A DNA stretch of 64,000 nt from Escherichia coli (lineage in GTDB: Bacteria; Pseudomonadota; Gammaproteobacteria; Enterobacterales; Enterobacteriaceae). The position numbers were made by a program, and so were the translations under genes. Shown piece by piece: positions 17,045-23,330 of this stretch. The stretch lies in assembly GCF_003334405.1 (NCBI RefSeq), contig NZ_QOWM01000001.1; one strand, 5' to 3'. Each line of letters opens with the position of its first letter. Within the stretch, counting starts at the first letter, position 1. The notes beneath the pieces are model-generated. The model had not been told where the DNA came from. It saw only the letters and a list, made by a program, of their open reading frames with translations, and did not search any database.

Positions 17045-18133
17045 TCACGGCAGGCGGTGGCGGGCTTGATAATAAGCCTGCCAGTGAGCTTCTTTATGTG
17101 TGGCGACACGCTGTTCGAAGTAACGGCGCAGACGAGCGCGATCTTCTTCGTTATCTTTGACGATGGTTCCGGCAATACAGTCCACCAGGTCGGCAGGCTC
17201 CCCCGCGCGATTCGCTAAAAACCAGGCGCGGACGCCCACGGCGTGGGCCACGTTCACGGCTTCAGCCGTGGACATAATCGCTGTTAGTGTATCCATTGAC
17301 GTTTTCTTTTCGCCGTTGGCACGCAGATCGCGGAAGGTGCGGACCAGTAACTCCAGTACCGCGTCAGGCACTTTATGCGGAATACCGCTATGGGCCAGCA
17401 AACGCGCCGAAGCACTGGCGACAAGCTCCAGCTCCTGGGCGAAATCCATAATCGGAAAGACAGTTTCAAAATCGAAGCGACGCTTTAGCGCAGCACTCAT
17501 TTCATTGACGCCGCGATCGCGGGTATTGGCAGTGGCAATAATATTAAAGCCTTCTCGCGCATAGAGCTGACTGGCTTCACCAGTGAGTTCCGGCACCGTC
17601 ATCACCCTGTCAGAAAGCATGCCTAACAGACAGTCTTGCACTTCCAGCGGTGTACGCGTTATCTCTTCAAAACGGACGATTTTGCCGTCGCGCATTCCCT
17701 GGTAAAGCGGGGCAGGGACCAGCGCTTCCGTTGATGGACCATGATTGATAAGCAGGGCGTAGTTCCAGCCGTACTTGATTTGATCTTCGGTAGTAGATGC
17801 GCCGCCCTGGACGGTTAACCCGGCATCGCCGCTAATAGCGGTTGCCAGTAATTCAGACAGGAGAGATTTTGCGGTGCCAGGTTCCCCCACCAACATCAAA
17901 CCGCGTCCGGTGGCAAGAGTGACTAACATACGTTCGACAGCGGAGGGACTAATCACCACTTTACGGCTAATATTTTGCGCGCTATCGCCAAGGATAAAAG
18001 CACGGGCCGCAGGCAAACTTAACTGCCAACCGGGCGGGCAAGGTGCGTTATCATTTTGTTTTAATTTTGCCAGTTCATCGGCGTATAACACAGCAGCAGG
18101 CGGACGCTGCAGATGATTATTCTGCGGTGACAT
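17045..18133 (-). CDS. yehL: MoxR-type AAA+ ATPase (AAA_5 family)
   Basis: ATG at 18133 (MSPQNNHLQRPPAAVLYADELAKL...) gives 362 aa; Walker A GEPGTAKS; Walker B-like IVRFEEI; stop 10 nt before yehM start. Confidence 0.88.
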   Translation of the reverse strand: MSPQNNHLQRPPAAVLYADELAKLKQNDNAPCPPGWQLSLPAARAFILGDSAQNISRKVVISPSAVERMLVTLATGRGLMLVGEPGTAKSLLSELLATAISGDAGLTVQGGASTTEDQIKYGWNYALLINHGPSTEALVPAPLYQGMRDGKIVRFEEITRTPLEVQDCLLGMLSDRVMTVPELTGEASQLYAREGFNIIATANTRDRGVNEMSAALKRRFDFETVFPIMDFAQELELVASASARLLAHSGIPHKVPDAVLELLVRTFRDLRANGEKKTSMDTLTAIMSTAEAVNVAHAVGVRAWFLANRAGEPADLVDCIAGTIVKDNEEDRARLRRYFEQRVATHKEAHWQAYYQARHRLP

Positions 18134-18242
18134 ATATTCATCCCTGAAATGTATTAATGAAATAAACGATATTTTACGCGCAATAAATGTTTGGCGCATT
18201 AGTTGTTTGAGCGAAAAATATCTGGAAAGCAGATCACAGTAA

Positions 18243-18327
18243 ATAAAAAAACCTGCTGGTGAGGCAGGTTCTTTTATTTACTATTTTCAGGCCTAACACC
18301 ACAGCCTGTGCAACATCGTGTTCCAAC
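18243..18327 (-). ncRNA. predicted OrzO/OrzP-type antitoxin sRNA (copy 1)
   Basis: Minus-strand -10 TATAAT (18339..18334) 17 nt from TTGCAA -35 (18357..18362); predicted TSS near 18327; intrinsic terminator ACCTGC/GCAGGT stem (18251-18269) followed by U-run on minus strand; 5' 20 nt complementary (19/20) to toxin leader 18474-18493. Ends are predictions. Confidence 0.5.
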
Positions 18328-18356
18328 GAACGAATTATAACCATGGCTGGACCCCG

Positions 18357-18384
18357 TTGCAATTAAGATAATGAGATTTATAAT
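18357..18384 (+). promoter_or_regulatory. predicted sigma70 promoter of toxin mRNA (copy 1): TTGCAA-N16-TATAAT
   Basis: -35 TTGCAA 18357-18362, -10 TATAAT 18379-18384; predicted TSS about 18391, giving a leader of about 175 nt to the ATG at 18566. Confidence 0.55.
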
Positions 18385-18565
18385 CCAGACCGTTGGGACG
18401 TTGCGCCGGATCGAACCTATTTCAAGTCCTGGCTACCGGACGGGTGGTGCTGCAGGTGGTGCCCTGATCCGGAGTGCAACATCGTGGTCCAACATACGTA
18501 AACCAGTATCGACAGGCAGTGTAAGGGTAAGGTGCTGGTGTTGCGCTCCTTAATAAGGAGAGCGG

Positions 18566-18655
18566 ATGGACACGCTGACACAAAAGTTAACCGTGCTCAT
18601 TGCTGTACTGGAGCTATTAGTAGCTCTGTTACAGTTGATTGATTTGTTGAAGTAA
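18566..18655 (+). CDS. zorO: ZorO/ZorP-family type I toxin, 29-aa hydrophobic peptide (copy 1)
   Basis: ATG 18566 with AAGGAG SD 6 nt upstream; translation MDTLTQKLTVLIAVLELLVALLQLIDLLK then TAA; matches remembered ZorO/ZorP family of E. coli O157:H7. Assignment of O versus P to the two copies is arbitrary. Confidence 0.78.
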   Translation: MDTLTQKLTVLIAVLELLVALLQLIDLLK

Positions 18656-18676
18656 CGGGCAAATTGAAACGCATCT

Positions 18677-18705
18677 AAGGGGGAAAACCGCTTCCCCCTT
18701 TAATA
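18677..18705 (+). terminator. intrinsic terminator after toxin ORF copy 1
   Basis: AGGGGGA ... TCCCCCT stem-loop followed by TTTAATAAAA. Confidence 0.45.
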
Positions 18706-18852
18706 AAATGATTACTGTTTTTATTAATTCATCATATAACTCATGTTTATTTATAAGTTCATCGATTTTATATTCAACGCACCATTTGACCGGGATGTGA
18801 ATATTTATGGTGGGCTATTGGCAAAAAATATCTGGAAAGTAGATCGCAGAAA

Positions 18853-18935
18853 ATAAAAAAACCTGCTGGTGAGGCAGGTTCTTTTATTTACTACAGTGAC
18901 GCTAACTTGCTGATTGTGCAACATTTCGTACCAAC
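18853..18935 (-). ncRNA. predicted OrzO/OrzP-type antitoxin sRNA (copy 2)
   Basis: Minus-strand -10 (18947..18942) 17 nt from TTGCAA (18965..18970); terminator stem 18861-18879 with U-run on minus strand; 5' region 18916-18935 matches leader 19082-19101 at 18/20. Confidence 0.5.
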
Positions 18936-18964
18936 GAATAAATTATAACCATATCCACACTCCA

Positions 18965-18992
18965 TTGCAATTCAGTGAATGAGATTTATAAT
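18965..18992 (+). promoter_or_regulatory. predicted sigma70 promoter of toxin mRNA (copy 2): TTGCAA-N16-TATAAT
   Basis: -35 18965-18970, -10 18987-18992. Confidence 0.55.
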
Positions 18993-19173
18993 CCTGCCCG
19001 TTGGGAGGTTGTGCCGGATCGGACCAATTTTAAGTCCTGGCTGCTGGACGGGTGGTGCCGCAGGCGGTGCCCTGATCCGGAGAGCAACGTTTCGTACCAA
19101 CATACGTAAACCAGTATCGACAGGCAGTGTAAGGGTAAGGTGCTGGTGTTGCGCTCCTTAATAAGGAGAGCGG

Positions 19174-19263
19174 ATGGACACGCTGACACAAAAGTTAATC
19201 GTGCTCATTGCCGTACTGGAGTTATTAGTGGCTCTGTTACGGTTGATTGATTTGTTGAAGTAA
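19174..19263 (+). CDS. zorP: ZorO/ZorP-family type I toxin, 29-aa peptide (copy 2)
   Basis: ATG 19174 with AAGGAG SD; translation MDTLTQKLIVLIAVLELLVALLRLIDLLK then TAA; differs from copy 1 at residues 9 and 23. O versus P naming is arbitrary. Confidence 0.78.
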   Translation: MDTLTQKLIVLIAVLELLVALLRLIDLLK

Positions 19264-19284
19264 CGGGCAAATTGAAACGCATCT

Positions 19285-19313
19285 AAGGGGGAATACCGTT
19301 TCCCCCTTTAATA
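19285..19313 (+). terminator. intrinsic terminator after toxin ORF copy 2
   Basis: AAGGGGGAA ... TTCCCCCTT stem-loop followed by TAATAAA. Confidence 0.45.
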
Positions 19314-19316
19314 AAG

Positions 19317-19637
19317 CTATTTTTCTATTTGTTGGATGAATATATTCTGTAGTTCACGATTAAAAATTGCTATTACAGTTTCAGGTGATTCACCTCGTAA
19401 TTTCCGCTCATCAATACACTCATCTCTTATATAAATCAACGCATCATTTATTAGCGGGTCAGCATCTTCTCGATCACGTTGATGAAATGTTGGATGTAGC
19501 CGGAATCGCTCCAGTCGATAGACGGAACCTGTAAATAATTCAGAGCATTTATGGATCTCAAGTCTGAAGGAAAACGGATCTTCAGGTACAGGGACCTCAT
19601 AATCGTAAATAGCAACCAGCTCTTTTTGCACGATCAT
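19317..19637 (-). CDS. yehK: small uncharacterised protein YehK
   Basis: 106-codon ORF (MIVQKELVAIYDYEVPVPEDPF...) directly downstream of yehI; no recognisable motif. Confidence 0.8.
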   Translation of the reverse strand: MIVQKELVAIYDYEVPVPEDPFSFRLEIHKCSELFTGSVYRLERFRLHPTFHQRDREDADPLINDALIYIRDECIDERKLRGESPETVIAIFNRELQNIFIQQIEK

Positions 19638-19697: not shown

Positions 19698-22600
19698 TTA
19701 ATGGAAAATGACGTCAGGTGCGCTTAACGCCTCACTCAAATCAAACACATCAAGTTCGGCAAAAGTGACGGATTTATTGTCACGGTACACTCGAAGAGAA
19801 CGGAAGCTCATTAGCGCTTTGCTATCAACATTGTAGTGGTTAAAACCGGGTGAAAACTTAAGGACCAGCCGGTACTCACCCAGGTCATAGACAAATGCGT
19901 CCTCATAGCCTGACTCCCAGCCTTTGTATCGCATTCCCATAAGTTGCCCAACGGTAGCGGATTTACCTTCCCAGCGAGTCAGGCTGTTACTGGTTGACTC
20001 GTCAGGTGTGAGCAGCACCGTGCGGCGCGACAACTGGCGAAAAGGCGGCATAATTTCGTAATCGGCAAAAAGCTGTGCAAATTCACTGCGCATTTCTGCT
20101 GTCATTTCTAACGGGTGGGCAATGCCAATCAGAGCATCCGCAGGAAGGTCAATGGGCTCATCCTGCGCATTGCAGAACTCCCCCTCTGCGGCCACACGAA
20201 AGGCGTTGAGTAAACGACGCGGTTCATTTGCCGGATAACCCCCCCATATTAATCGCTGGGTAACCAGGCGGGTAAAGGGATGATTAACAAACAGAGAATG
20301 AAAATCTGCCAGCGACCAGCGTCGGGTGGTACGTAGGGCAGCTTCAAGACGCGGGAGCAGGTTTTTGCTCACCTGAGTAGCATCTTTTTTTAGCCCTTTT
20401 AGTCGGGCCAGTGCCTCGGGCGCTTTCAGTTGATCGTCATCGGCACGCAACCGGGGAACACTTTTCTGGCGAACGTTTTGTTGATCAAAGATAACCGGGT
20501 TGAGGTTTTCATCGAAGCGAACGGTAAACTGCCGGGGACCAAAATCAAAAATCAACGCCTGCGGATCATCAAGACCCAGTGTTGGGACTAATCTGTCCGC
20601 TAACTCTTCCTGGCTTAGCCCGCGATTTTCTGCGACCACCTGAAGAAATTCCGCTGCGTTTTCACGTAATGAAGAGGATTTCGCCCGTTGTGATACATGA
20701 TGCAGCTGTATCAGCGCCATATCATTATTCATCAAGGTAAGTATATTCAGACCAATGACAGCACGGGCAGATTTGCCTTCTTGTGGCCAGGCGAGGATCT
20801 GTGTCGTCAGATCCCGAGCCGTGCTTTCGTCACCAAAGAGACTTAACGCCAGAAATGCCCAGTTGTCTTTTGCGGGGGCACCAGCTTGTTGCCACGCAGT
20901 GAAGAGATCCCAGGCAAAAGCGGCCAGCGTTTGTGGCTGGCAAAACGTTTTCAGTTGTTCCAGCCCGCTATAAAAACGTCCCCCCTGGGTAAAGCGCAGC
21001 ATTTCGCCGATAATTTCCAGAGCGTCATCGGTAACAGGCTGATTATTAGTGATAAGTCGAGGCCTGGACCACATTGCCGGATGCCAGAAATCAGGGGCTT
21101 TTGGAATGCGTGCCGGGTAAATGTCCATTGGACCCTGTTTCAGTAATTGTTCCAGGGCAGGCCATACATCTTTACGCTGCCAACGATTGGCTACAGTTTG
21201 TAGCAATTCGCCATGCCCATGTTCGTAAAGTAAACGCAGGGCAAGTAATGCAGCTTCGCTATTATCGCTGGATTTGGTGAAGACAAGAGGGATAAGTGCA
21301 GTAGCCGTATGTTCCGGCCAATGTAAAATCCACTGGCGAGCCAGACCACGCTGCACCGCGAAACGTCGCCAGACGCGGGCAACGGGCAGGGCCAGTTCTG
21401 TTGCGCCAAAATTTAAAATTAACGGAAATGTTTCTTTTGGACGATGTGAAAAAGCCAACATCAGACCTGGTAGCGCATCCAACCCGAGGATACTAAGAAA
21501 ATAGTCCTCACCCGCGAACAGATGTTTTTTCTCATTGATACGCAGCCAGAAGGTCAAAGCCATCTCACGCGGCAACTGTGCCAATAAATACAGGTTCCAG
21601 ACACTCTTTTCCGGACGATAACGTGAGTAGTTGTCATTTTCCCATATGTTAATTAACGCTTCTATGTGACCGCTGCGGAGCGCCTGTTCTGCTAATTGTG
21701 CTTCCGGGGAGTTCCAGCCATTCAGGATCTCTTCAACCCGCCCCTGGTAGTAATGCCACTGAACAATGAGTGAATTGCGTGCAGCATCCAGTTTTCCGGG
21801 GAGTATATAATTCAGAAACAGCCATACATCATCCCCAAAACCCAGTTCCTGTAATACAACTCGCCCACTTTTTTGTTCCATGCGTTCCGCAAGAGATTCC
21901 GTGCTGAAATAACGGGCAGACTCAGTGGAGGCAAGCCTCTCTTGTTCGCCTGGTTGCCAGTAAACTTGCGGGGTTAATTCGAGCGGTGCCAAATCAAGAC
22001 GTGGAGCTGTCATTTTTTTCTTACTACGCCACGGTGGTGAAACGAGGATTTCAGGCAGATTGCTGTTATCGGTGCCATCAATAACCGGTTTGGGCGGTGC
22101 CAATAAATAACTATTCAGTACTGCCCGGGCTTGAGTACTTAACCACTGCATCACCTCTTCTGCCAGTTGTGGCTGCGATGCCATCAGCGTTTGTAACAGC
22201 GTACGCCAGTATTCATCGCGTGCTTTTTGCTGGGCAGGCAGCTTTTTGTCTTCGATGATTGGATAACCAGGGCGGGCTGGTGGTTCTTTTAACGCCAGCA
22301 GTTCTGCCAGTGCCGCGAGCGTCGCGTGGGGGAAGTTTTTACTGTATTTAGCCACACGTTGCAGGCTGGGTTTGTTTTTATCAGCCACCAGTAGCAAGGT
22401 GTGGATGACCTGCGGATGGTTAATTTGTACCAACAGACTGCCGCAATCTTCTTTATGGGCATACATCGCGAGGCGCGGAATGGCTGCCAGTCCTTGTTCG
22501 CGCAAAAGGGCGGCGCAGGCCGCGTAGCCGAAGTGGTTTTTTTGTGACATGTAGCTGGCTTCGCGATCGCTAAATACGTCCAGGCCCCAGTATCGTTCGA

Positions 22601-23330
22601 GTTTTTTTACCGCCGTATTATCAGTAGCAACGACCTTTAACCACTCCTTTGAATGGAGACTTGACCGGGAGCTTTCAAGACTGGCGAGTTCATTGGCTAT
22701 TTCAGGCTTTTCCGGGAGGATCAGCGCAATAAAAGGACGGCGAATTTTGGGTATTCCTGGCAGTGCGGCAATGAGTTTATCGGCACAACGCTGCCAGCAA
22801 CTTTCCTCTGCCAGCGACAGATGCTTACGCAAACGGAGAGCGAAATCGTTATAGGTCGCGGAGCCATAACCGTAGCCATAGTCCTCGTCCTGATACTGCA
22901 AAGTGACGACCAGTGAATCACTCTCATAACGCCGCGCAATGCACTGACGCGCCATCACTACATCCGTCGCATATTCCAGCCCCTCTTGTTGGACGATTTC
23001 GTCGAGCAACTGTTGGCTGTCATTTTGCGCGATACAGGCTAGCGCCGCCATTGTCCGGGCCGGGATTGAGGGTTTGTGTTCGCCGATCAAGTTGATGGCC
23101 TGCGTGATGGCGGACTGCCACTCCAGTAAAAAATTTTCATAACGCCAGACAATGTTTTTTTTCTTCTCAGCTTTTTGTAGCAATTCATCACCCAGTGTCT
23201 GAATGATGCTTTCAGTGATAACAGGCACTGGTTCGCCCGGCCAATTGCGATGGCTGAGTGGTGTTTTACCCTTTTTATATTTCAGTTCCAGTTGGGCGTT
23301 ATCAGCCAGCCACGGTAATTCCTTGTCCAT
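19698..23330 (-). CDS. yehI: MolR/YehI-family giant protein, DUF4132-like C-terminal region, no N-terminal WGR domain
   Basis: 1210 aa; begins at the conserved PWLAD block; C-terminal third homologous to the two upstream paralogs (FAWDLFTAW...GAPAKDNWAF...). Confidence 0.88.
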   Translation of the reverse strand: MDKELPWLADNAQLELKYKKGKTPLSHRNWPGEPVPVITESIIQTLGDELLQKAEKKKNIVWRYENFLLEWQSAITQAINLIGEHKPSIPARTMAALACIAQNDSQQLLDEIVQQEGLEYATDVVMARQCIARRYESDSLVVTLQYQDEDYGYGYGSATYNDFALRLRKHLSLAEESCWQRCADKLIAALPGIPKIRRPFIALILPEKPEIANELASLESSRSSLHSKEWLKVVATDNTAVKKLERYWGLDVFSDREASYMSQKNHFGYAACAALLREQGLAAIPRLAMYAHKEDCGSLLVQINHPQVIHTLLLVADKNKPSLQRVAKYSKNFPHATLAALAELLALKEPPARPGYPIIEDKKLPAQQKARDEYWRTLLQTLMASQPQLAEEVMQWLSTQARAVLNSYLLAPPKPVIDGTDNSNLPEILVSPPWRSKKKMTAPRLDLAPLELTPQVYWQPGEQERLASTESARYFSTESLAERMEQKSGRVVLQELGFGDDVWLFLNYILPGKLDAARNSLIVQWHYYQGRVEEILNGWNSPEAQLAEQALRSGHIEALINIWENDNYSRYRPEKSVWNLYLLAQLPREMALTFWLRINEKKHLFAGEDYFLSILGLDALPGLMLAFSHRPKETFPLILNFGATELALPVARVWRRFAVQRGLARQWILHWPEHTATALIPLVFTKSSDNSEAALLALRLLYEHGHGELLQTVANRWQRKDVWPALEQLLKQGPMDIYPARIPKAPDFWHPAMWSRPRLITNNQPVTDDALEIIGEMLRFTQGGRFYSGLEQLKTFCQPQTLAAFAWDLFTAWQQAGAPAKDNWAFLALSLFGDESTARDLTTQILAWPQEGKSARAVIGLNILTLMNNDMALIQLHHVSQRAKSSSLRENAAEFLQVVAENRGLSQEELADRLVPTLGLDDPQALIFDFGPRQFTVRFDENLNPVIFDQQNVRQKSVPRLRADDDQLKAPEALARLKGLKKDATQVSKNLLPRLEAALRTTRRWSLADFHSLFVNHPFTRLVTQRLIWGGYPANEPRRLLNAFRVAAEGEFCNAQDEPIDLPADALIGIAHPLEMTAEMRSEFAQLFADYEIMPPFRQLSRRTVLLTPDESTSNSLTRWEGKSATVGQLMGMRYKGWESGYEDAFVYDLGEYRLVLKFSPGFNHYNVDSKALMSFRSLRVYRDNKSVTFAELDVFDLSEALSAPDVIFH

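Follow-up and report, generated by a model that had tools for sequence, protein, structure and literature searches.

The segment 18245-19263 of the window, by which the whole 64-kb stretch of DNA analysed here is meant, is the known zor-orz type I toxin-antitoxin locus of Escherichia coli, which lies in the yehL-yehK interval and is present in two tandem copies. Both Orz antitoxin sRNAs are encoded on the minus strand and match the Rfam model RF02083 (OrzO-P) over its full length, copy 1 at 18245-18320 with 99.9 bits and copy 2 at 18855-18928 with 88.8 bits (gathering score 60). The Zor toxin ORFs on the plus strand (18566-18655 in copy 1, 19174-19263 in copy 2) encode peptides of 29 aa, MDTLTQKLTVLIAVLELLVALLQLIDLLK and MDTLTQKLIVLIAVLELLVALLRLIDLLK, respectively, each of which is identical in 28 of 29 residues to the published ZorO peptide MDTLTQKLTVLIAVLELLVALLRLIDLLK (PMC6669753) that was used as reference; NCBIfam holds no Zor family model. 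The end of the yehL ORF (18133-18199) borders the locus on the left, and yehK (19317-19637) and yehI (19698-23330) follow on the right according to the ORF list, an order that agrees with the RefSeq annotation of the homologous O157 region. The zor-orz stretch is 100% identical to that of E. coli UMNF18 and 98.8% identical to that of an O157:H7 genome, and it is present at least in part in 5233 of the 5426 complete E. coli genomes.

The same locus has been described in the O157:H7 strain EDL933, where Fozo et al. (2010; PMC2887945) reported the tandem z3289/z3290 pairs at yehL/yehK-yehI, which were later named zorO-orzO and zorP-orzP. The EDL933 locus has the same yehL-yehK position and is likewise tandemly duplicated, and it also agrees in the RF02083-type Orz, the 29-aa Zor, the 174-nt toxin leader, the use of the Orz 5' end for pairing, and the hexamers of both genes, TTGCAA as -35 and TATAAT as -10 (PMC2887945, PMC3919570, PMC5397157, PMC11264685). 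In the window the duplicated unit measures about 610 bp. Differences to EDL933 are at the strain level only and comprise R23Q in Zor copy 1, T9I in Zor copy 2 and a few spacer substitutions. Judged from its location and from the T3S marker in O157, copy 1 beside yehL (orzP-type) corresponds to the zorP/orzP slot and copy 2 beside yehK (orzO-type) to the zorO/orzO slot. The EDL933 Zor alleles are toxic when overproduced and are rescued by the cognate Orz (PMC3919570). With regard to the peptides of the window, copy-1 Zor has Q23 (codon 18632-18634) where ZorO has R23, and copy-2 Zor has I9 (codon 19198-19200) where ZorO has T9; a ZorO R23L variant is reported to be non-toxic, yet still protective in kanamycin (PMC9860968).

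Promoter elements and transcription starts

Between the orz and zor genes of copy 1, the minus-strand -10 hexamer of orz (ATTATA on the plus strand, 18334-18339) is followed by a 17-nt spacer (18340-18356), the hexamer TTGCAA (18357-18362), a 16-nt spacer (18363-18378) and the plus-strand -10 hexamer TATAAT of zor (18379-18384). These elements can be read directly from the DNA and were also called by a promoter scan, and TTGCAA is its own reverse complement, as an earlier note on this DNA had stated. The same geometry recurs in copy 2 with ATTATA at 18942-18947, TTGCAA at 18965-18970 and TATAAT at 18987-18992, again spaced by 17 and 16 nt and recovered by direct reading, by the promoter scan and by a search for the composite; since the locus is a tandem duplication, this recurrence reflects descent. 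The note had also put the shared elements forward as new, which does not hold, because they are already in print. The legend of Fig. 1A in Wen et al. (2014; PMC3919570) describes the predicted -35 and -10 elements of zorO-orzO as boxed and the mapped starts as bold, and in Table 3 of Shore et al. (2024; PMC11264685) both Zor and Orz are entered with “-35 (TTGCAA)” and “-10 (TATAAT)”. The -35 conservation figures given there are the same for the two genes, which is what one physical hexamer would yield.

A consensus scan of 18100-19400 returned only four sites, with one rightward site (16-nt spacer) and one leftward site (17-nt spacer) at each TTGCAA. All four promoters match the consensus at 10 of 12 positions (TTGCAA 4/6, TATAAT 6/6), and in both copies the hexamers have the TTGACA/TATAAT-like form and the 16-18 bp distance by which sigma-70 promoters are defined (16 bp in zor, 17 bp in orz). 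Single promoter-like sites are common at the scan threshold (4 observed versus 3.0 +/- 1.8 expected from shuffles), whereas the composite ATTATA-N17-TTGCAA-N16-TATAAT, with up to two mismatches allowed, occurs within the 64-kb window at these two places only, against an expectation of 0.01 derived from 100 dinucleotide shuffles, none of which contained two or more matches. Therefore, the improbable part is the composite and not the individual sites. At distances of 16-18 nt, neither strand has another -35 hexamer with more than 3/6 matches, and the scan found no TG extended -10 in the zor or orz promoters. Between the two copies, 10 of 33 spacer positions differ, and all 18 hexamer positions are the same. 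Each promoter pair spans 51 bp, and its -10 hexamers are 45 bp apart from centre to centre. The bases TTG are the best conserved -35 positions of sigma-70 promoters. A self-complementary hexamer matches TTGACA at 4/6 positions at most, and four hexamers reach this value, namely TTGCAA, TTTAAA, TGGCCA, and TGTACA; as the only one of these that keeps TTG in both directions, TTGCAA is the optimal fully shared -35.

The zorO transcript has a 5' UTR of 174 nt with the RBS at +164 to +169 (Wen et al., 2017; PMC5397157). Leader length and RBS position together place zor +1 at 18392 in copy 1 and at 19000 in copy 2, in each case 8 nt past the plus-strand TATAAT, and the leaders then extend over 18392-18565 (RBS AAGGAG at 18555-18560) and 19000-19173, respectively. 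For the antitoxin, the first 18 nt at the OrzO 5' end are known to pair continuously with zorO (PMC3919570), and this continuous pairing was reproduced only with an orz start at G18935, 7 nt past the minus-strand TATAAT. Nucleotides 1-18 of copy-2 orz then pair continuously, with one G.U, with the zor UTR at 19084-19101, and position 19 is mismatched. From this pairing in copy 2 and from the position as the 7th nucleotide after the -10 hexamer, we infer orz +1 at G18327 and G18935. Copy-1 orz pairs with the zor UTR at 18474-18493 in 19 of 20 positions with one internal mismatch, and both copies thus show Orz-zor pairing as delimited by Shore et al. (PMC11264685), i.e., 15 or more nt without interruption, or 17 or more nt if one internal position is mismatched. 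Down to the terminator T-run, the computed orz RNAs measure 83 nt in copy 1 (18245-18327) and 81 nt in copy 2 (18855-18935), in agreement with the published Orz northern bands of about 80-85 nt (PMC2887945). Moreover, Fozo et al. (2010; PMC2887945) report that all four starts were mapped by primer extension in EDL933. The published zorO leader length and the OrzO pairing therefore fit the -10 elements predicted in the earlier note, with orz +1 placed as above, and in both copies 65 bp separate the zor start from the orz start.

A 20-nt segment of each zor leader recurs, nearly unchanged and inverted, at the 5' end of the cognate Orz (18472-18493 versus 18308-18327 in copy 1, 19080-19101 versus 18916-18935 in copy 2). 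Cognate Orz-zor pairs match at 18-19 positions and cross pairs only at 8-9 continuous ones, and such weak cross pairs are consistent with the published absence of cross-talk between the O and P pairs. The Orz terminator hairpins (18250-18270, 18860-18880) were also called on the plus strand with the tail CTTTTATTTA and probably act in both directions; within the tandem array, transcripts running on from copy-1 zor could be terminated at the copy-2 hairpin. The scan did not report the G5/C5 hairpin at about 18679-18698, past the copy-1 zor ORF, as a terminator.

Conservation of hexamers and spacings

To gather relatives of the locus, DNA anchors lying outside the hexamers were used. The orz terminator stem, searched in species-representative genomes, led to E. 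whittamii and two further Escherichia species, the zor RBS hairpin, searched in metagenomes, led to 18 metagenome contigs, and several E. coli genomes were added. With two truncated contigs left out, the set comprises 17 distinct haplotypes of a 66-bp stretch spanning both starts, from E. coli, other Escherichia and metagenomes. Variable columns number 0 of 18 within the hexamers versus 31 of 48 elsewhere (Fisher p = 6.6e-7), which is a column-wise comparison and not a count of independent events, since the haplotypes are related by descent. Both -10 hexamers and TTGCAA are thus invariant, and the spacers vary at 14 of 17 columns on the orz side and at 9 of 16 on the zor side, with zero indels and both lengths fixed in all 17 haplotypes. 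These results agree with the counts of Shore et al. (2024; PMC11264685), according to which 99.4% of 2,439 zor/orz loci carry TTGCAA and 99.8-100% carry TATAAT. Such a pattern shows that TTGCAA and both spacings are constrained by selection, although as sequence evidence it is not strict proof that both promoters depend on the hexamer.

The arrangement ATTATA-N17-TTGCAA-N16-TATAAT is kept in every copy with enough upstream sequence, with one exception. The exception is the 1-kb metagenome contig OWIP01028780.1 (L011 1-420, minus strand), in which unrelated DNA precedes the zor leader, present from about +45 onward, and the ORF; this contig without the zor/orz promoter could be the product of a rearrangement or an assembly chimera.

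Together with the published leader and pairing, the invariant hexamers support the reading of the earlier note that these are divergent toxin and antitoxin promoters, the toxin gene being zor on the plus strand and the antitoxin gene orz on the minus strand. Likewise, the claim that one physical hexamer is read as -35 by both promoters gains support from the fit of the start sites and from the invariant hexamers and spacer lengths. In the main, the analysis bears out promoter assignments that were already published, and it contributes evidence from several species for selection on the three hexamers and both spacings.

Loci that have kept only orz, including those of MG1655 and O145, retain TTGCAA, the zor TATAAT and about 40 nt of the zor leader, after which the 3' end of yehK follows on the opposite strand (L002 1690-1790 in E. 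coli O145; L009 8290-8373 in MG1655, NC_000913.3 about 2,204,290-2,204,372). By its position, the orphan toxin-side promoter of these loci would give rise to an RNA antisense to yehK. In MG1655 (NC_000913.3), the start of orz (orzPmg) is predicted at 2,204,402 on the plus strand and that of the zor-promoter remnant at 2,204,337 on the minus strand. In the MG1655 region the scan called the zor remnant and the orz promoter as the sole promoter-like sites, the zor remnant alone on the reverse strand. Run-off transcription of MG1655 DNA with purified enzymes showed a 1.92-fold preference of E-sigma70 for yehL, and a reverse-strand transcript of the intergenic region was obtained in vitro with a 1.54-fold preference for E-sigmaS (PMC3141248). 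These data give a hint that holoenzyme alone suffices for both promoters to fire, and that sigma preference may not be the same in the two directions, where we infer the probe assignment and the ratios lie at the threshold. Orz-only strains including K-12 thus carry the toxin-side promoter without the toxin.

Comparison with other promoter arrangements

The E. coli K-12 loci shoB-ohsC and tisAB-istR have a layout like that of zor-orz, with a long toxin leader and a divergent antitoxin sRNA that pairs via its 5' end. However, the -35 hexamers of shoB (GTGACC) and ohsC (TTGTAA) in MG1655 are 69 bp apart and not shared, and the same hexamers are listed in Shore et al. (2024). For tisAB no -35 is listed, and the scan found only the istR-2 promoter TGGACA/GATACT. 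Among these three divergent type I loci of E. coli, only zor-orz shares its hexamer; dinQ-agrAB, whose promoters were not detected by the simple scan, was left out of this comparison.

Overlapping promoters as such are common in E. coli, since about 314 of 2281 promoters overlap a reverse promoter (PMC3167631), and the zor/orz kind of overlap is therefore no rarity. For overlapping tail-to-tail promoters, Bendtsen et al. (2011; PMC3167631) modelled the interference between RNA polymerases, showed it with a synthetic pair and found that it depends on the fraction of time for which a promoter is occupied; they cite aroP P1/P3 and lambda PR/PRM as examples of the class. With the reverse start at -65, the zor/orz pair lies within the geometry of this class (reverse start between -80 and +20, occupied regions overlapping). 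As a difference to the tail-to-tail class described there, zor and orz have -35 hexamers that coincide exactly by means of a palindrome, they have no known regulator, and one product is the antisense regulator of the other. A second class, the bidirectional promoters of Warman and Grainger, is defined by a shared symmetric -10 with an own flanking -35 for each direction, and the authors explicitly leave separate divergent promoters out of it (Warman et al., 2026; PMC12825309). The zor/orz pair does not belong here, as it shares the -35 and has separate -10 elements with starts 65 bp apart, whereas the Warman/Grainger promoters share the -10 and have separate -35 elements. For five E. coli promoters with a shared -10, the basal activity was too low for competition until one direction was strengthened or activated (PMC12825309).

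A further comparable case is mtrR/mtrCDE of Neisseria gonorrhoeae, where overlapping divergent sigma-70 promoters have neighbouring -35 elements. With point changes in these adjacent -35 elements, one transcript decreases and the other increases, an effect that the authors ascribe to RNA polymerase shifting between the promoters (bioRxiv 10.1101/448712). In mtr, however, the hexamers lie side by side without coinciding, the gene products are a repressor and an efflux pump, and the region is bound by MtrR and MtrA. A literature search for an exactly shared palindromic -35 at divergent promoters yielded nothing relevant.

Probable exclusive binding and possible competition at the shared hexamer

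Overall, the data are best explained by a zor-orz locus with back-to-back sigma-70-type promoters on a common TTGCAA -35, exclusive binding of RNA polymerase and, if interference occurs, a bias in favour of orz, a reading that we consider as a whole to be probable. According to this reading, each copy comprises a 51-bp back-to-back sigma-70-type promoter pair from which the zor mRNA is transcribed rightward and the orz sRNA (about 82 nt) leftward. The holoenzyme covers about -55 to +20 (PMC3167631), and footprints of this size on zor and orz overlap by 46 bp including the hexamer; even the cores from -40 to +10 overlap at the hexamer. With 65 bp between the two starts, and with sigma region 4 having to contact the same six base pairs in opposite orientations, the geometry implies that two holoenzymes would be mutually exclusive. 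Because of its optimal 17-bp spacer compared to 16 bp in zor, orz should be the stronger and more often occupied promoter, and the abundance of Orz RNA in growing cells is consistent with orz as the better promoter. Interference, if any, would then shift transcription in favour of the antitoxin and add to the repression that is known to act post-transcriptionally.

The competition between toxin and antitoxin transcription proposed in the earlier note is a plausible and reasonable idea and falls within a type of promoter interference that is already known. The promoter anatomy was already known, and the competition idea is unpublished as far as searchable texts show. The searchable texts on zor-orz, including Shore et al. 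(2024), do not comment on hexamer sharing or promoter competition, and no experiment was found in them that separates the two directions or inactivates one promoter to read the other; published functional work was all done with PBAD and PLlacO-1 constructs. If competition holds true, the zor/orz pair would be a natural counterpart of the shared -10 bidirectional promoters now being dissected, and one that can be uncoupled by -10 mutations or by duplication of the hexamer. Point mutations of the hexamer have to be read differently. The earlier note took an effect in only one direction as a refutation of sharing, which is flawed: because of the palindrome, a substitution hits different -35 positions on the two strands, so that direction-specific effects are expected even with sharing. 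For example, with A in place of C4 the plus strand reads TTGAAA and the minus strand TTTCAA.

Mutually exclusive binding, as deduced here from the layout, need not have regulatory consequences. It has almost an even chance that the hexamer is physically common and the promoters nonetheless fire independently, with RNA polymerase occupancy too low for measurable exclusion; sharing would then reflect compact packing or the origin of the module, and the balance of toxin and antitoxin would be entirely post-transcriptional. This agrees with the established control of zor, which is post-transcriptional and involves the UTR structure, processing, and OrzO together with RNase III (PMC3919570, PMC5397157). 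It also agrees with the finding that all five tested E. coli bidirectional promoters were too weak basally for competition and that “down” mutations in one direction did not cause a rise in the other (PMC12825309), and with the fact that interference scales with occupancy and not with strength (PMC3167631). However, the zor and orz promoters are better than typical ones (perfect -10, 10/12 overall) and OrzO is abundant in the exponential phase. Furthermore, competition did emerge in the study of Warman et al. after improvement of a -35 (PMC12825309), and a strong synthetic reverse promoter lowered its overlapping partner (PMC3167631). Since both promoters of the zor/orz pair are stronger on paper than typical ones, we rate the chance of an interference that is measurable under normal growth (at least 1.5-fold on zor) as somewhat below even.

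Apart from being neutral to each other, the two promoters might also be positively coupled, either by negative supercoils that a departing polymerase leaves behind and that open the partner, or by A+T-rich -10 regions that act like UP elements. Transcription-driven supercoil coupling of divergent promoters is documented (PMC5175336, PMC4469952), and close divergent ThnR promoters each transcribe more when both are present (PMC4834489); in addition, each TATAAT lies at -52 to -58 of the partner promoter and thus by position in the distal UP-element zone. However, the supercoil effect requires that both enzymes are loaded in turn and leaves the steric clash at the -35 in place, and the UP-like role is a positional argument only, which makes positive coupling unlikely.

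Distinctly unlikely is the use of TTGCAA by one promoter only, with the other one running on its consensus -10 and perhaps on A+T-rich upstream DNA, so that sharing would be a coincidence of annotation. Although TTGCAA matches the consensus at just 4/6 positions, the zor spacer of 16 nt is suboptimal and the sister toxin promoter tisAB is listed without a -35 (PMC11264685), both promoters lack a TG extended -10, with which a -35 would not be needed, and neither strand offers a better -35 candidate at 16-18 nt. Moreover, both spacer lengths are fixed in the 17 haplotypes despite heavy substitution, which would be unexpected if one side ignored the hexamer. That TTGCAA and its invariant neighbours (AATTATAAC, TTGCAATT, and GAGATTTATAATC beside the hexamers) are conserved for the binding of a transcription factor and not, or not only, as a -35 would fit the reported carbon-source response of zorO and orzO expression (PMC3919570), but is highly improbable, as there is no extended dyad around TTGCAA, the zor-orz literature searched reports no regulator, and purified holoenzyme alone appears to transcribe the region in MG1655 DNA (with the ROMA probes assigned as above).

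An extension of the exclusive-binding reading concerns the sigma factors. The orz/yehL direction from TTGCAA might be favoured by the sigma-70 holoenzyme during growth and the zor direction relatively by sigma-S, a possibility to which we assign only a small probability. Upon entry into stationary phase, such a toggle would lower antitoxin synthesis and at the same time free the toxin promoter, with one enzyme per TTGCAA. Besides the in vitro preferences described above for MG1655, a hint in this direction is that Orz RNAs are abundant in exponential phase and drop in stationary phase (PMC2887945). If true, the ratio of toxin to antitoxin transcription and its cell-to-cell noise would be set without a repressor.

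On the left side of the locus, yehL directly follows copy-1 orz and has the same orientation, and the orz terminator is located about 110 nt before the yehL ATG (18133-18327 of the window, minus strand; L009 8368-8600 in MG1655). A simple scan found no other sigma-70-like promoter between orz and yehL, and read-through from orz could feed the yehLMPQ operon. In E. coli S1-INA-02-A (L003 1430-1560), an IS1 end abuts the orz-side spacer (junction …GGCAGCATTACC/CCACGGCTGGACCCCGTTGCAA); orz, the orz -10 and yehL-yehQ are absent there, and TTGCAA and the zor-side TATAAT remain as a toxin-side promoter without partner.
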